Notes under the pieces: generated by a model | The model's database searches: none | Told to the model about the DNA's origin: nothing | The model's input: only the letters and a program-made list of their open reading frames with translations | Virus record (IMG/VR): IMGVR_UViG_3300028030_000005 | Coordinates: 33,646 to 97,645 of that record | DNA length: 64,000 nt | Source: a virus | Direction: 5' to 3' (one strand) | Program-made: the position numbers and the translations under genes | Shown: positions 33,503 through 63,406 of the stretch, piece by piece | Layout: each line of letters starts with the position of its first letter | How positions within the stretch are numbered: the stretch's first letter is position 1

Positions 33503-35214
33503 TATTTTTCAAATAAAATTTTTAGCGCATCTTTCATCATTGGATTGTCTGAGTATTCTGTTGCTGATAATGCTTTTTCAACCTTATCGTCTGTATCTAA
33601 TGTGTCCCAGAAATCGTCGTCTGACATAGATTCTTGCTCGTCTTGCATAACTTCACCGTTTTCGTCTTGTTCTCCTGCCATTTGAGCTTGTTGATATACT
33701 TGTATCCATTGTGGATTCAAAATCAAATCATCGTCTGGTAATTCGTCTGGTAATCCGTGTTTTCTACGAGCTTCTTTGTATCCCATAAACGAACTAACTT
33801 TACTGATATCCAAATCAACTTCAGATTTTTCATCATCAACATCAACACCAACAAAAGCAAACTCAAAATTCTCATCAATTGGATTGACCAGCCATTTGTT
33901 TATCCAAAACTCAATTGAGTGTAATAATGGTCGTAATCCTTTGTCTTTTGAGTATTTTAACTGCTGTTCGTTATTTGATTCGAATAAAGCTCCTCCTCCA
34001 GATGCATTCCCCAGGTTAAATCCTATTTCCTCCGGTGAGATTTTAAAGATTGCACACGCTACTTTGATTAGATACTCCTGCCACTTTGCAAATTGCATAT
34101 CAGTGTTGTTTTTTTGCAAGTCTATCCATTCCATCTTTTCGCTTTCAATCATTGGAATTTTCCACGCATTCTCAACACCAGCAACCATCGCTGCCCATTG
34201 TTGTCTAAATTCTGCAAGTCTATTTCGATTAATTCCTTTCGAAACTTTGAGTAATCCTTTCGGACTACTACCTTGAGAAAAGAACTTTCCGTTATAAGCA
34301 TCTGAATATAACATCCACGTAATGATGCTTATCAACTCCTCTACTTCTGACTTGCCATATCCGTTTGCACGAATATCTGTTGTTTGATTGCGTACTCCAA
34401 AACACAACTCCCACGGATAAAATTCACTTCTGATTACACCATCTATCACTTGAACGTAGCTCGGATAATACCCGTGTTTTTTCTCTCGATTGATACTTGT
34501 ATTCGGGTTATTTTCATATTCATCGTCGTCCCAACTATCTGCAATGCGGAATGTAGCTCCATCAACAGCAAGATATTCAACTGGAATCCCTGCTCTGTTG
34601 CGAACTACTTCAAACGTTGCTTGGTCGAGCGTTAATGCATCGTCAACGATTTTCTTTAAGAAGCTATCAAACGTATCACCGTGCCAACTATTCGCTTTGT
34701 CACCTCCGTTGAGCAAGAAATCAGTTATTTGTTTGATTTTTTGCTTATCGGTAGATGTTAATTCTACTTCGTCGCTTGTATAGTATTCTTGCTTTTTGCG
34801 AATAACAAATCCTGTTTCATATTTGTTTTTTTGTGGACGAGCAAATGCTGCTACTTGTGCTTGACGCGTTGTGATTATCGCTTTTATAATTGGAGTTTTT
34901 GCCATTCGACGTAATGTTGTGAATGACAAAGAAAATGATTTATGTTTATATCCTACTGCATCGTTCCATTGATTCGGGTCTATCAACTCTGATTTAAGTC
35001 CGGATGATTGTCTTGACTGTATGTCTTGCCAGTATGATTGTGCTTTCAAAAGAATGTCAGGATTGTCACTTTGAAATGCTTTTTCTAATATTTGACCAGT
35101 CTGTATATCAAGTTGATGACGTTGTTGTTGTAATTTATCGAGCTCTGTCGATACATCACTTTTAACGTCATCGCTTTGTCCAGCCGTTGATGTGATTACG
35201 TAGTTGAAATACAT
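33502..35214 (-). CDS. Portal protein
   Basis: AIITTRQAQV, DALTLDQ, AVDGATFR, GYGKSEVE, FFSQGSSPKG, DMQF, SPEEIGF, SKDKGLRPLL: Herelleviridae-type portal. Confidence 0.92.
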   Translation of the reverse strand: MYFNYVITSTAGQSDDVKSDVSTELDKLQQQRHQLDIQTGQILEKAFQSDNPDILLKAQSYWQDIQSRQSSGLKSELIDPNQWNDAVGYKHKSFSLSFTTLRRMAKTPIIKAIITTRQAQVAAFARPQKNKYETGFVIRKKQEYYTSDEVELTSTDKQKIKQITDFLLNGGDKANSWHGDTFDSFLKKIVDDALTLDQATFEVVRNRAGIPVEYLAVDGATFRIADSWDDDEYENNPNTSINREKKHGYYPSYVQVIDGVIRSEFYPWELCFGVRNQTTDIRANGYGKSEVEELISIITWMLYSDAYNGKFFSQGSSPKGLLKVSKGINRNRLAEFRQQWAAMVAGVENAWKIPMIESEKMEWIDLQKNNTDMQFAKWQEYLIKVACAIFKISPEEIGFNLGNASGGGALFESNNEQQLKYSKDKGLRPLLHSIEFWINKWLVNPIDENFEFAFVGVDVDDEKSEVDLDISKVSSFMGYKEARRKHGLPDELPDDDLILNPQWIQVYQQAQMAGEQDENGEVMQDEQESMSDDDFWDTLDTDDKVEKALSATEYSDNPMMKDALKILFEK

Positions 35215-36528: not shown

Positions 36529-36861
36529 CTATTTACTTTCCTGATGACGTTTGATTGTCATTTCTCTTAATTCTGCTACTTGTTTTGGAACTTTAACAAC
36601 GTCTCCTACTTTTTTACCTTGACGCTTCAATTCTCCAACAGCATCGAGCTCAAAATCCAACTCAGTTAATTTGATTTCGACTAACTCTTGTGATGTTATT
36701 TTCTTGTTGAGTAGGTCGTTTTTTGTTGCTTCAAGCATTCCGACAATATAGACATCATCAACAGGTTGTCTTGTATTGATTCCTATTGTCATTTCTCCAG
36801 TTTTCTTTTGAGTGATTACTATCTTTATCACTTCATCTTGTGCTAATTCTACTTTTGACAT
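36529..36861 (-). CDS. Hypothetical protein
   Basis: 110-aa ORF with its own TTG-N20-TATATTTA box at about 36884-36914. Confidence 0.6.
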   Translation of the reverse strand: MSKVELAQDEVIKIVITQKKTGEMTIGINTRQPVDDVYIVGMLEATKNDLLNKKITSQELVEIKLTELDFELDAVGELKRQGKKVGDVVKVPKQVAELREMTIKRHQESK

Positions 36862-36914
36862 ATTTACAGTTTTTAAATTTTGTTAAATATACAACTTTAA
36901 TATGTTTTACACAA

Positions 36915-36940
36915 CAAAAAATCCCCACCGAAGTGGGGAT
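36915..36940 (-). terminator. Rho-independent terminator with UUCG loop
   Basis: Minus strand ATCCCCAC-TTCG-GTGGGGAT-TTTTT. Confidence 0.85.
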
Positions 36941-36948
36941 AAGTTCTC

Positions 36949-37053
36949 ATATAGGTGCCTTTTAACGCTCCACGAATCCTTACGAACTCATATAGGTGCC
37001 TTTTAACGCTCCACAATCCCGAAGGATTATATAGGTGCCTTTTAACGCTCCAC
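36949..37053 (-). repeat. Three identical 25-nt direct repeats separated by tetraloop hairpin spacers (putative ncRNA)
   Basis: ATATAGGTGCCTTTTAACGCTCCAC at 36949-36973, 36990-37014 and 37029-37053; spacers of 16 and 14 nt. Confidence 0.95.
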
Positions 37054-37063
37054 GAGAGATGTC

Positions 37064-37762
37064 TTAAATAGGTTTATATGATATTGTTTTTGCACCGCCC
37101 TGGCCTATATTATGTAATCCAAACATCCAAAATTTATATAGGTGGTCTGTTGTGTAAATTTGTTTTTGAGTTGCTTTATCTATTGCAACGATTCGTAATG
37201 CAAATCGTTGTCCTTGATAGATTTTCGTGTTTCCTTCGTCTATATAATAATTTCCTCGCTCTCCTTTCATTGAAGGGAAGTCGTCTTTAAAATATTTTTC
37301 TTGATGAAAATCGAATGAAAATGACGCCGACGGAATGTTGAATTTATTTGGTCTTTGTGCTACACTTGCTACGTTTGTGTCGTGTTTCCATCCTGCACGT
37401 CTTTGTCTATCGTTTTTTACTCCTAAATACTCATATCGTCTCCACCTATCAACAGCAATCTTAATATCTATGTCGTCTGATTTCAATTTTTTGACGATAT
37501 CGAAATTTTTAATCAATAAAGAAGGTAATAGTAAGTTAATTTCAGGAGTGCTTTCGAGTTCTTTGTAATTTTCTTTACTCCACTTCATTTCAATCTCAAT
37601 ATCGTTCAACTGCTCATACATTCCTCCTGATATACTATCAATGATGTAATTTAAAGCACGTTCGTTGTTTTCAGACAATTCTTGTGTTGTTGCTGCCGTT
37701 ATTGACGAAATTGCTGATATCGTATCGGTTATCTTTTTTATCAATTGCTTATCTGCCATCAA
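37064..37762 (-). CDS. Hypothetical (possibly virion) protein
   Basis: 232-aa ORF. Confidence 0.6.
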   Translation of the reverse strand: MMADKQLIKKITDTISAISSITAATTQELSENNERALNYIIDSISGGMYEQLNDIEIEMKWSKENYKELESTPEINLLLPSLLIKNFDIVKKLKSDDIDIKIAVDRWRRYEYLGVKNDRQRRAGWKHDTNVASVAQRPNKFNIPSASFSFDFHQEKYFKDDFPSMKGERGNYYIDEGNTKIYQGQRFALRIVAIDKATQKQIYTTDHLYKFWMFGLHNIGQGGAKTISYKPI

Positions 37763-37763
37763 A

Positions 37764-38141
37764 TTATCGTTTTACTACTACAATTATTTGAACCTTTCCT
37801 TGAGTTGACCAGTTGACATTTGAAATGTCTAATAACAAATATCGTCCTGTAATATCGTTACCCAAATCATATTTTGCAGACATATTATCTGACATTGTGA
37901 TTGTACTGGTCGCAGATACCTGGTCTGCTTGTCCGAGAATATTGCTCTGTTTTATCACAATTTGTCCTGATTGTCCAGAAGTTGCTTGTGGAAGTACTTG
38001 AACAGATGCTTTGCTAAATCCTAACATATCTACAAACAATTCTCCTCCTGCAAATCCGTCAGTCAAGTCGATATCAAATATCACTTGTTTTGCAACATTA
38101 GTATCGTGATGATGTATTTTGTGTTTTTTTATGGAACCCAT
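37764..38141 (-). CDS. Small beta-rich protein, possible decoration/structural protein
   Basis: 125 aa; alternating beta pattern ASVQV...GQIVIKQSN...GRYLLL. Confidence 0.5.
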   Translation of the reverse strand: MGSIKKHKIHHHDTNVAKQVIFDIDLTDGFAGGELFVDMLGFSKASVQVLPQATSGQSGQIVIKQSNILGQADQVSATSTITMSDNMSAKYDLGNDITGRYLLLDISNVNWSTQGKVQIIVVVKR

Positions 38142-38219: not shown

Positions 38220-38261
38220 GACCGAGACCTATAACAATGCTGTGCTGATATTGCACTGTTG

Positions 38262-38335
38262 TAGCAGGGGCCGGACTCGAACCGACGACCTTGAGATTAT
38301 GAAACTCACGAGCTAACCATCTGCTCTACCCTGCG
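38262..38335 (-). tRNA. tRNA-Met (CAT), initiator-like with atypical anticodon stem
   Basis: CGCAGGG/CCCTGCT acceptor with C1:U72 mismatch, A73, T-arm GTCGG-TTCGAGT-CCGGC, anticodon loop TTCATAA; CCA not encoded. Confidence 0.88.
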
Positions 38336-38340
38336 ATGTG

Positions 38341-38630
38341 TGGAGATGCTGGGATTCGAACCCAGGTCCCGTACAATTTGCAAATCAAAGTTTTATACAG
38401 CTTAATAGGGCCGACTGACGTCGTGATTTCCACCAGTTAGTTTTGTGAAAACTAACAAAACGTATTGTTCTCTACGCAGCTATCAACTCTGTTGATGTGT
38501 TCATTTTATGAACAATAAATCTGCTTTTGTTACTATTATTGCCAGTTATTTTAATTCACCGTACTTTTTAACGAGAGCTACCTCGGCTGAACTTTGAATT
38601 ACTCGTTGCAGGTCAATGCCGTACATCCCC
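38341..38630 (-). ncRNA. ssrA: tmRNA
   Basis: 5' GGGGATG pairs with 3' CATCTCC-A including G3:U70; T-arm CTGGG-TTCGAAT-CCCAG; ATAACT-GGC resume site; tag GNNSNKSRFIVHKMNTSTELIAA* (38472-38543). Confidence 0.92.
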
Positions 38631-38652
38631 ATATGTTAATGAACTATTATTT

Positions 38653-38890
38653 GGAAATTTGGTGGTGTACTCGCGAATGACTACACCACCTTATTTCCTA
38701 TCAAACACAAAACTATATCAATCCGGTATCTGCTTTATGTTTGATAACCATTGCCGTACTGTTTCTGTTACTTTACACTTCACCACAACGCTCCGTGTAA
38801 TAACGTTTCTGTTCCAGTTGCTACCAGCTAAACGTGTCTATTGTTGTGGCTCACCACGCGTCGCTCAAGTAGCTAAGAATTAACGGTTGG
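38653..38890 (-). ncRNA. Candidate structured ncRNA between tRNA-Ile and tmRNA
   Basis: Several stems (9 bp perfect; 15 bp with G-U pairs valid only on the minus strand; 7-8 bp); no convincing ORF. Confidence 0.5.
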
Positions 38891-38898
38891 TTTTCTCG

Positions 38899-38971
38899 TG
38901 TTGTGAGTAGGACTCGAACCTACGACCTCGTCCATATCAGGGACGCGCTCTACCAACTAAGCTATCACAAC
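38899..38971 (-). tRNA. tRNA-Ile (GAT)
   Basis: GTTGTGA/TCACAAC acceptor, CGTCC-CTGATAT-GGACG anticodon arm, GTAGG-TTCGAGT-CCTAC T-arm; CCA not encoded. Confidence 0.92.
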
Positions 38972-39244: not shown

Positions 39245-39283
39245 TACATTGTAAAGATACTCAATTTATATCTCTTAGACAAC
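39245..39283 (-). promoter_or_regulatory. Repeated phage promoter (TTG-N20-TATCTTTA)
   Basis: GTTGTCTAAGAGATATAAATTGAGTATCTTTA on the minus strand. Confidence 0.7.
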
Positions 39284-40965: not shown

Positions 40966-41002
40966 TGATAAATTTTTTGATAAAGGTACTTAAAATTGAT
41001 AT

Positions 41003-41215
41003 CTATTCCAACCACTCTATTACTGCTATCCAAAATTGTCCTACAATTACCATTAGTATAATCATCGGAAATATCCAAACAACATATAACATCAGATACA
41101 GTAATTCGTGTTTAAATATAGATACTACAATCGGTGCTGTCGCAATCGCTATTTCGATTAATAAAAAGAATACGATTGCTGTGAATGAGATGAGATTGTG
41201 AATGTAATGTTTCAT
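41003..41215 (-). CDS. Small membrane protein
   Basis: Two hydrophobic helices. Confidence 0.55.
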   Translation of the reverse strand: MKHYIHNLISFTAIVFFLLIEIAIATAPIVVSIFKHELLYLMLYVVWIFPMIILMVIVGQFWIAVIEWLE

Positions 41216-43366: not shown

Positions 43367-45589
<2,223 letters not shown>

Positions 45590-47143: not shown

Positions 47144-47190
47144 TTGATTTCTACACCATAAAGATACCCATTTTATATCTTTCAGACAAC
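47144..47190 (-). promoter_or_regulatory. Repeated phage promoter plus leader
   Basis: GTTGTCTGAAAGATATAAAATGGGTATCTTTATGGTGTAGAAATCAA. Confidence 0.85.
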
Positions 47191-55137: not shown

Positions 55138-55184
55138 TTGATTTCTACACCATAAAGATACTACATAGTTATCTTTTAGACAAC
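55138..55184 (-). promoter_or_regulatory. Repeated phage promoter plus leader
   Basis: GTTGTCTAAAAGATAACTATGTAGTATCTTTATGGTGTAGAAATCAA. Confidence 0.85.
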
Positions 55185-63358: not shown

Positions 63359-63406
63359 TTGATTTTCTACACTGTAAAGATACTACATAGTTATCTTTTA
63401 TGCAAC
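63359..63406 (-). promoter_or_regulatory. Repeated phage promoter plus leader
   Basis: GTTGCATAAAAGATAACTATGTAGTATCTTTACAGTGTAGAAAATCAA. Confidence 0.85.

Follow-up and report, generated by a model that had tools for sequence, protein, structure and literature searches.

A conserved three-repeat structured RNA at the predicted 3' end of a phage transcription unit, a candidate multivalent binding platform

In a phage genome (IMG/VR record IMGVR_UViG_3300028030_000005), of which we analysed a window of 64,000 nucleotides (positions 33,646 to 97,645 of the record), we characterized a non-coding element of ~140 nt on the minus (sense) strand, within 36915-37060, that consists of three identical 25-nt modules, R1 to R3, and stable hairpins (Table 1). 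Judged from its sequence and from the comparisons below, the element is a real, conserved and orphan structured RNA of narrow distribution that falls outside all the families tested. The interpretation we favour, with a probability of roughly 0.45, is that it works at the RNA level as a multivalent binding platform for a partner that is most likely a protein. The analysis shows the anatomy, strand, operon position and conservation of the element and the cargo status of ORF232, its carrier gene; in this reading it is the accumulation of the RNA, the binding and the identity of the partner that we infer. It is preferred because the RNA-specific clamps, the strict 3 x 25 nt invariance and the status of the locus as cargo fit it best.

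Table 1. Features of the repeat element and of the neighbouring genes, with positions numbered along the window.
Feature	Positions	Strand	Description
R1	37053-37029	minus	invariant 25-nt module GUGGAGCGUUAAAAGGCACCUAUAU
R2	37014-36990	minus	invariant 25-nt module GUGGAGCGUUAAAAGGCACCUAUAU
R3	36973-36949	minus	invariant 25-nt module GUGGAGCGUUAAAAGGCACCUAUAU
leader	37054-37063	minus	10 nt from the ORF232 stop codon to R1; not conserved in the X2 relative
hp1	37028-37015	minus	clamp hairpin AAUCC-UUCG-GGAUU
hp2	36989-36974	minus	clamp hairpin GAGUUC-GUAA-GGAUUC, with two G.U pairs
linker GAGAACUU	36941-36948	minus	between R3 and the terminator
intrinsic terminator	36940-36916	minus	8-bp stem, UUCG loop, U-run
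ORF110 promoter	36884-36915	minus	host-type; GTTG, 20 nt, TATATTTA; directly after the terminator; full pattern match
ORF125	37764-38141	minus	first gene of the transcription unit; resembles a small viral beta-sandwich protein
ORF232	37064-37762	minus	cargo gene; its 3' UTR is the repeat RNA
ORF110	36529-36861	minus	downstream gene, separate transcription unit

The repeat element and its predicted folding

The three R modules are identical at 25 of 25 positions, with start-to-start periods of 39 and 41 nt. None of 100 shuffled sequences gave any match, even at 3 mismatches, and no other copy of the motif was found in the 97,645-bp (97.6-kb) phage record, the element being its sole site. The modules alternate with two clamp hairpins, and a linker and an intrinsic terminator come after the third; the GC-rich stem-loop of this terminator, AUCCCCAC-UUCG-GUGGGGAU at 36940-36921, has a fold energy of -13.5 kcal/mol, with a U-run behind it on the transcribed strand. 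This is the arrangement that the first-pass annotation had described, namely three exact repeats at a 39-41 nt period, UUCG and GNRA spacers and a terminator, all on the minus strand, and both the shuffles and the fold energies bear it out. The first three bases of the linker, GAG, are common to the start of hp2 (the 28-nt repeat family D1). The hairpin of unit 1 departs from that of unit 2 in its loop and one arm, and the R modules are without any difference. The arm differences consist of one A/G and one C/U, and pairing is retained through G.U in both.

Within each R module a stem of 5 bp, GGAGC/GCACC, can be drawn around an 8-nt purine-rich loop, GUUAAAAG, followed by a UAUAU tail. This fold had been proposed in the first-pass annotation, and the stem is indeed predicted, but a central A.A mismatch makes it weak (-3.9 kcal/mol). 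The same module, as read from the sequence, is also an imperfect 18-bp palindrome, GG.GC.TT..AA.GC.CC, that matches at 12/18.

Several signals separate the two strands. Each of the three clamps is capped by a C(UUCG)G or C(GUAA)G tetraloop. UUCG hairpins with a stem of at least 5 bp are rare: the whole genome has four in the sense orientation, where 1.1 would be expected, and the element accounts for two of them. The G-U pairs of hp2 work on the minus strand only, as had been claimed for them, with hp2 folding at -3.9 kcal/mol as minus-sense RNA and not at all as plus-sense RNA; for the whole element the fold is at z = -2.4 in the minus sense compared to z = -1.1 in the plus sense. Because of the tetraloops, the rare UUCG hairpins, the strand-specific hp2 and the better minus-sense fold, the element appears to have been selected as a minus-sense RNA.

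Genome context, promoters and neighbouring genes

The phage record is estimated to be 94% complete and has 36% G+C, and all of its predicted genes (127/127) lie on the minus strand. The nearest cultured phages, as judged by the portal protein, have Chryseobacterium (47% identity) and Bacteroides as hosts, and the best sequencing-run match to the phage DNA is a hydrothermal-vent metagenome; no RNA run is among the matches listed. Along the direction of transcription, the local order is tRNA-Ile, tmRNA, tRNA-Met, a terminator with a promoter-like stretch, ORF125, ORF232 and the repeat element with its terminator, and this is followed by the promoter at 36915-36884, ORF110, a virion structural protein (PHROG), two ORFs and the portal gene. 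By this order, the repeat element is the predicted 3' end of an ORF125-ORF232 transcription unit, and no convincing promoter of its own was found for it. Given that all genes are on the minus strand and that the element is placed between the ORF232 stop codon and a terminator, it would necessarily be transcribed on the sense strand.

The phage carries a family of promoters with the pattern GTTG-N20-TAnnTTTR, which is the Bacteroidota -33/-7 promoter type. It recurs in intergenic regions, and the window has 12 matches, 11 of them on the minus strand, against 0.87 expected (examples are at window 63375-63406, 55153-55184, 47159-47190 and 39252-39283). The promoter-like stretch before ORF125 was read from the sequence and lies outside the strict pattern. 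R itself was considered as a promoter and rejected for its lack of fit to this pattern. Most promoters of the family, though not those at 36915-36884 and 40981-41012, have a palindrome, AAGATA-N8-TATCTT, that overlaps the -7 box and resembles the operator of a dimeric regulator.

As for the proteins, the look-alikes of ORF125 in the Atlas are viral proteins of 110-135 aa (structure TM 0.66), and ORF125 is probably a virion or decoration protein. ORF232 has N-terminal helices and a C-terminal beta domain with a weak resemblance to cadherin-like repeats. It has no match in Pfam, PHROG or PADLOC, while a HMMER search over 1.84 billion representatives returned two proteins of 239-258 aa at E about 1e-5 and showed the resemblance of its C-terminal ~50 aa to the cadherin-like repeats of giant adhesins; its model is poor (pLDDT 60), with no Foldseek match in the PDB and nothing usable in the Atlas. 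ORF110 is without a Pfam, PHROG or PADLOC match and, with a model at pLDDT 74, without a Foldseek match in the PDB. It is not a toxin candidate, and none of the three proteins ORF125, ORF232 and ORF110 resembles a toxin, a Cas protein or an RNA-binding protein.

Further upstream, the phage tmRNA (window 38340-38630, minus, 80 bits) has an unusually long predicted tag, GNNSNKSRFIVHKMNTSTELIAA, and is flanked by tRNA-Met(CAU) and tRNA-Ile(GAU) (window 38261-38971, minus), with a gene-free interval of ~267 nt from the tRNA-Ile to the tmRNA. Upstream of its tag frame, at 38565-38580, it carries CUCGUUAAAAAG, which has 8 nt (CGUUAAAA) in common with R, a match that is probably due to chance. A GroEL-type chaperonin gene is found at window 43596-45194 (PHROG 5725, E = 1e-119).

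Strong terminators fused to promoters are also seen at other operon ends of this genome, and the element closes an operon that is probably structural or decorative, directly before its terminator and the next promoter. Both facts would suit a cis-acting 3' cassette, in which the hairpins stabilise the ORF125-ORF232 mRNA and insulate it from the following unit, the repeats being mere remnants of a triplicated unit without a specific partner. We regard this as unlikely, if still deserving serious weight: the other terminators of the genome are single hairpins without R-like modules, and the cassette leaves unexplained why the 75 nt of R remained unchanged among the copies, and between the two phages compared below, while spacers and flanks changed.

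Conservation in a relative

The comparison with relatives, which the first-pass annotation had put forward as a check, was made with X2, a sequencing run from a different study in which one contig covers 36852-37790. This contig differs from the phage by 97 substitutions and 11 gaps, with ORF232 about 12% diverged. The 145 nt at 36912-37056 differ by a single substitution, A>G at position 36985 of the plus strand. In the RNA sense this is U to C at base five of hp2, a change that turns a U.G into a C-G pair and brings hp2 from -3.9 to -6.8 kcal/mol. All the fully supported differences up to 37242 were listed, and the count for the element is complete. The leader before R1 has 2 substitutions and a 1-nt insertion, and on the other flank changes resume at 36911. 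The one relative keeps the hairpin pairing and has R unchanged, and the notion of a selected RNA, with a repeated motif between structure-keeping spacers, draws support from the all-minus genes, the tetraloops, the G.U pairs and this U.G to C-G change.

The substitution deficit of the element compared to the rest of the X2 contig is significant (Fisher P = 7e-7), as it is when compared to the third codon positions of ORF110 (4/55; P about 2e-4). Against the raw divergence on the ORF110 side (2.6%) the difference is not significant (P = 0.10), and part of the conservation pattern could therefore stem from a mosaic or recombination boundary located at the ORF232 stop codon. The basis of the conservation is this one relative, with no two-sided covariation; another run, X3, covers ORF110 only.

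A coding role of the repeats was also considered and rejected, as the 1-nt insertion before R1 in X2 argues against it. Read-through of the ORF232 stop codon (window 36974-37066) would place R1 and R2 in frame and give GALKGTY twice, and unit 2 alone holds a 3-codon frame, AUG-AGU-UCG-UAA.

Distribution of the element and its cargo status

In the phage relative L009/G001 (92% complete), whose portal protein is 66% identical, homologues of ORF110 (46% identical) and of ORF125 (35% identical, directly after a tRNA) are separated by about 6 kb of other genes; ORF232 is absent, and no R-like motif was found with as many as 3 of 18 positions mismatched. The place directly before its ORF110 homologue (L009:3339-3467) is taken by an unrelated, strongly structured spacer of 130 nt with a long hairpin (z = -3.3); 0 of 200 shuffles fold as well. 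In X2, a second contig has 36881 apparently joined to 37749, so that 867 nt comprising ORF232, the RNA and part of the ORF110 promoter are skipped. Its depth is 26.7, compared to 49.9 for the cassette-bearing form, with only 30 nt on the joined side, and by its sequence the contig may represent a presence/absence polymorphism of the cassette. Because ORF232 and the RNA are absent from L009/G001 and possibly skipped in the X2 contig, they look like lineage-specific cargo in a variable slot.

IMG/VR was scanned for the 18-nt core and for a tandem 10-mer pattern, and all matches were due to chance or low complexity; BLAST of the element against GenBank phages gave generic terminator-like stretches only. 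A pattern scan found no IMG/VR relatives of ORF232, ORF110 or ORF125, and no homologues of ORF232 or ORF110 were found in GenBank phages. The portal-gene metagenome scan returned two short contigs without the upstream region, and an ORF110 homologue of 85% identity (P0002) is encoded on a 35-kb contig. Nothing reached the gathering score among the Rfam covariance models, and at E up to 10 they gave spurious terminator-driven matches only (isrB, 22.6 bits compared to a cut-off of 35).

One look-alike array, in the record IMGVR_UViG_3300038674_000441 (L010), was set aside as unrelated, being composed of DNA inverted repeats upstream of terminase genes. At L010:5500-5760, on the minus strand, are three 46-nt tandem units, each with GCTTCAGTTAAAAGGC, and the inverted repeat GACTACTTTTGTAGAC occurs at least five times upstream of the small and large terminase genes. 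Only a 10-mer is in common with the R element, and the array itself looks, from its sequence, like a set of DNA sites, pac or operator.

A function at the DNA level could also be imagined for R, with the repeats serving as operators or iterons for a phage or host protein in the control of the promoter at 36915-36884, in replication or in packaging. The three direct repeats are spaced at 39-41 bp (about four helical turns) and lie roughly 40-170 bp upstream of that promoter, each holds the imperfect 18-bp palindrome, and the phage already uses AAGATA-N8-TATCTT palindromes at other promoters. We consider a DNA-level role to be distinctly unlikely. It does not account for conserved spacers and a terminator that bear hallmarks of RNA, namely the tetraloops, the G.U pairs and the change from U.G to C-G, and an identity of 25 bp is rare among operators of a single protein. 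The palindrome is at about P = 0.01 before correction for the choice of centre, there is no further R in the genome, and the ORF110 homologue of L009 is without R sites. Likewise, cumulative GC skew is monotone across the locus, with no turn to mark an iteron-bearing origin, and structural-type genes and the portal gene lie nearby.

Proposed mode of action

If the element is indeed an RNA platform, transcription of the ORF125-ORF232 unit would run through it and stop at the terminator (36940-36916), and the last ~140 nt would fold as alternating modules, in which hp1, hp2 and the terminator isolate the three R modules. The clamps should shield the 3' end from exonucleases and should also keep the self-complementary R modules from pairing together. 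The RNA would then offer three equivalent sites to a sequence-specific partner, the candidates being a host factor or the co-inherited ORF232, and it could affect its own mRNA or function as a stable 3'-end-derived RNA. Against this proposal, ORF232 and ORF125 are without an RNA-binding family or fold; the conservation comes from one relative, lacks two-sided covariation and is at P = 0.10 by the raw ORF110-side comparison; and the 12/18 palindrome of R would also suit a dimeric DNA-binding protein.

Antisense targets of R were looked for without success. The best R duplex over the whole phage transcriptome is at -21.6 kcal/mol, and with one Bacteroidota rRNA operon at -23.0 (5S rRNA), both within the range of the shuffled controls. 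A specific suggestion, that the loop UUAAAAG of R shields or sequesters host tRNA-Lys(UUU) by pairing to its anticodon loop, is one to which we give hardly any credence. The complementarity is of seven contiguous bases in the loop, a length within chance, which leaves the invariance of the remaining 18 nt unexplained. Position 37 of tRNA-Lys normally carries t6A, by which this pairing is blocked. Moreover, sequestration would harm the translation of the phage itself, and an anticodon-nuclease decoy would be expected to look like the loop, not to be its complement.

A bolder version of the platform reading can be put forth, in which ORF232 and the RNA constitute a new phage accessory module, where the RNA assembles with or titrates a defined protein and co-occurring phages gain or lose the two together. 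We think this rather unlikely. In that case, the module could be a counter-defence RNA decoy of Bacteroidota phages, or an RNA-protein particle with a possibly trimeric ORF232.

Little is known of phage non-coding RNAs in Bacteroidota and, to our knowledge, the classical RNA chaperones are missing from this phylum, with CsrA and Hfq generally absent. The element is compact and has a well-defined structure, and can therefore be easily made and tested. Invariant modules on accessory cargo, possibly variable among co-occurring phages, are a good place to seek an RNA that manipulates proteins. If a decoy function is true, it would extend RNA-based counter-defence to a new phylum, and if the element is merely a 3' stabiliser, it shows how a phage constructs insulated 3' ends.

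Comparison with known systems

The tRNA-Lys pairing considered above is one specific form of a decoy, and two others, a pseudo-antitoxin and a CRISPR-repeat mimic, follow from known systems. Type III toxin-antitoxin loci are defined by repeats with a terminator, a single-promoter operon and a ToxN-type toxin (PMC5086642). In such loci the RNA is processed to monomers of unit length, to which the toxin binds. The ToxI, CptI and TenpI arrays and the pseudo-ToxI of phage TE (PMC5086642, PMC3475682) are like the element in that their short RNA units stand in tandem on a single strand and end in a Rho-independent terminator; the unit length of 39-41 nt is in the same range, and there is a precedent for a phage-borne mimic. 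The element does have three 39-41-nt units followed by a terminator, but the units are not uniform, each being an invariant 25 nt plus a variable hairpin, and what precedes the array is a gene, not a promoter. The first-pass annotation had read the order of repeats, terminator and ORF as the type III layout. This does not stand, as ORF110 has its own promoter between the terminator and the gene, shows no sequence or fold match to ToxN, CptN or TenpN, and is kept in L009 as a homologue without upstream repeats.

A free-standing mimic is a separate matter. By analogy with the pseudo-ToxI of phage TE, the RNA might imitate a host type III antitoxin and neutralise its endoribonuclease, and the tandem 39-41-nt units before a terminator, the A-rich core, the phage location and the precedent itself (PMC3475682; PMC5086642) would agree with this, as would the cargo status, which suits an anti-defence trait. 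We nevertheless hold it to be very unlikely. In 185,579 species genomes the 18-nt core gave two chance matches inside unrelated sequence, and in a sample of 401 Bacteroidota genomes the search at up to 2 mismatches gave single matches of the same order as the control pattern and no arrays, so that no host counterpart of R was found in either set. In addition, the tandem units of known antitoxins are uniform and lack variable hairpins, Bacteroidota are not named in the host list of the review (PMC5086642), and a toxin gene is absent at the locus.

The same searches bear on RNA anti-CRISPRs (Racrs) and solitary repeat units, which the element resembles as a phage-encoded non-coding repeat RNA for which decoy action has been proposed (PMC10651486). 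Here R would mimic a host CRISPR repeat and trap Cas proteins. Phage-encoded repeat mimics are known for many CRISPR types (PMC10651486), and the R copies are mutually identical, as CRISPR repeats are. Racrs are, however, defined by their similarity to a CRISPR repeat (PMC10651486), and no matching repeat was found for R in the species genomes or in the Bacteroidota sample. The idea of a CRISPR or antitoxin decoy, which had been raised from the sequence, thus receives no support from these genomes. Solitary repeat units often stand just after a predicted promoter (PMC10651486), and the element has none directly upstream. R is 25 nt long and without a strong repeat-type hairpin, and the intervals of 14-16 nt are structured clamps and not spacers. 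A Racr-like decoy seems highly improbable to us.

In its general design the element resembles the protein-sponge RNAs. CsrB/RsmZ and CrcZ carry several copies of a short motif on or between hairpins, end in a terminator and titrate their proteins by multivalency. Repeated motif, hairpins and terminator are alike in both, but the R motif is 25 nt long and strictly invariant, compared to the 3-6-nt GGA or CA motifs of these RNAs, and the element is phage-borne and located in a 3' UTR. Sponges of the CsrB/RsmZ type expose many GGA motifs in hairpin loops to their partner CsrA/RsmA. The GGA of R lies in its predicted stem, and no Rfam CsrB/Rsm match was found at E up to 10.

T4-type phages have intergenic C(UUCG)G hairpins and terminator cassettes, which are extra-stable, are located at gene ends and probably protect the 3' end. 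These cassettes are single or duplicated hairpins, whereas the hairpins of the element frame three weakly structured, identical modules that are its most conserved part.
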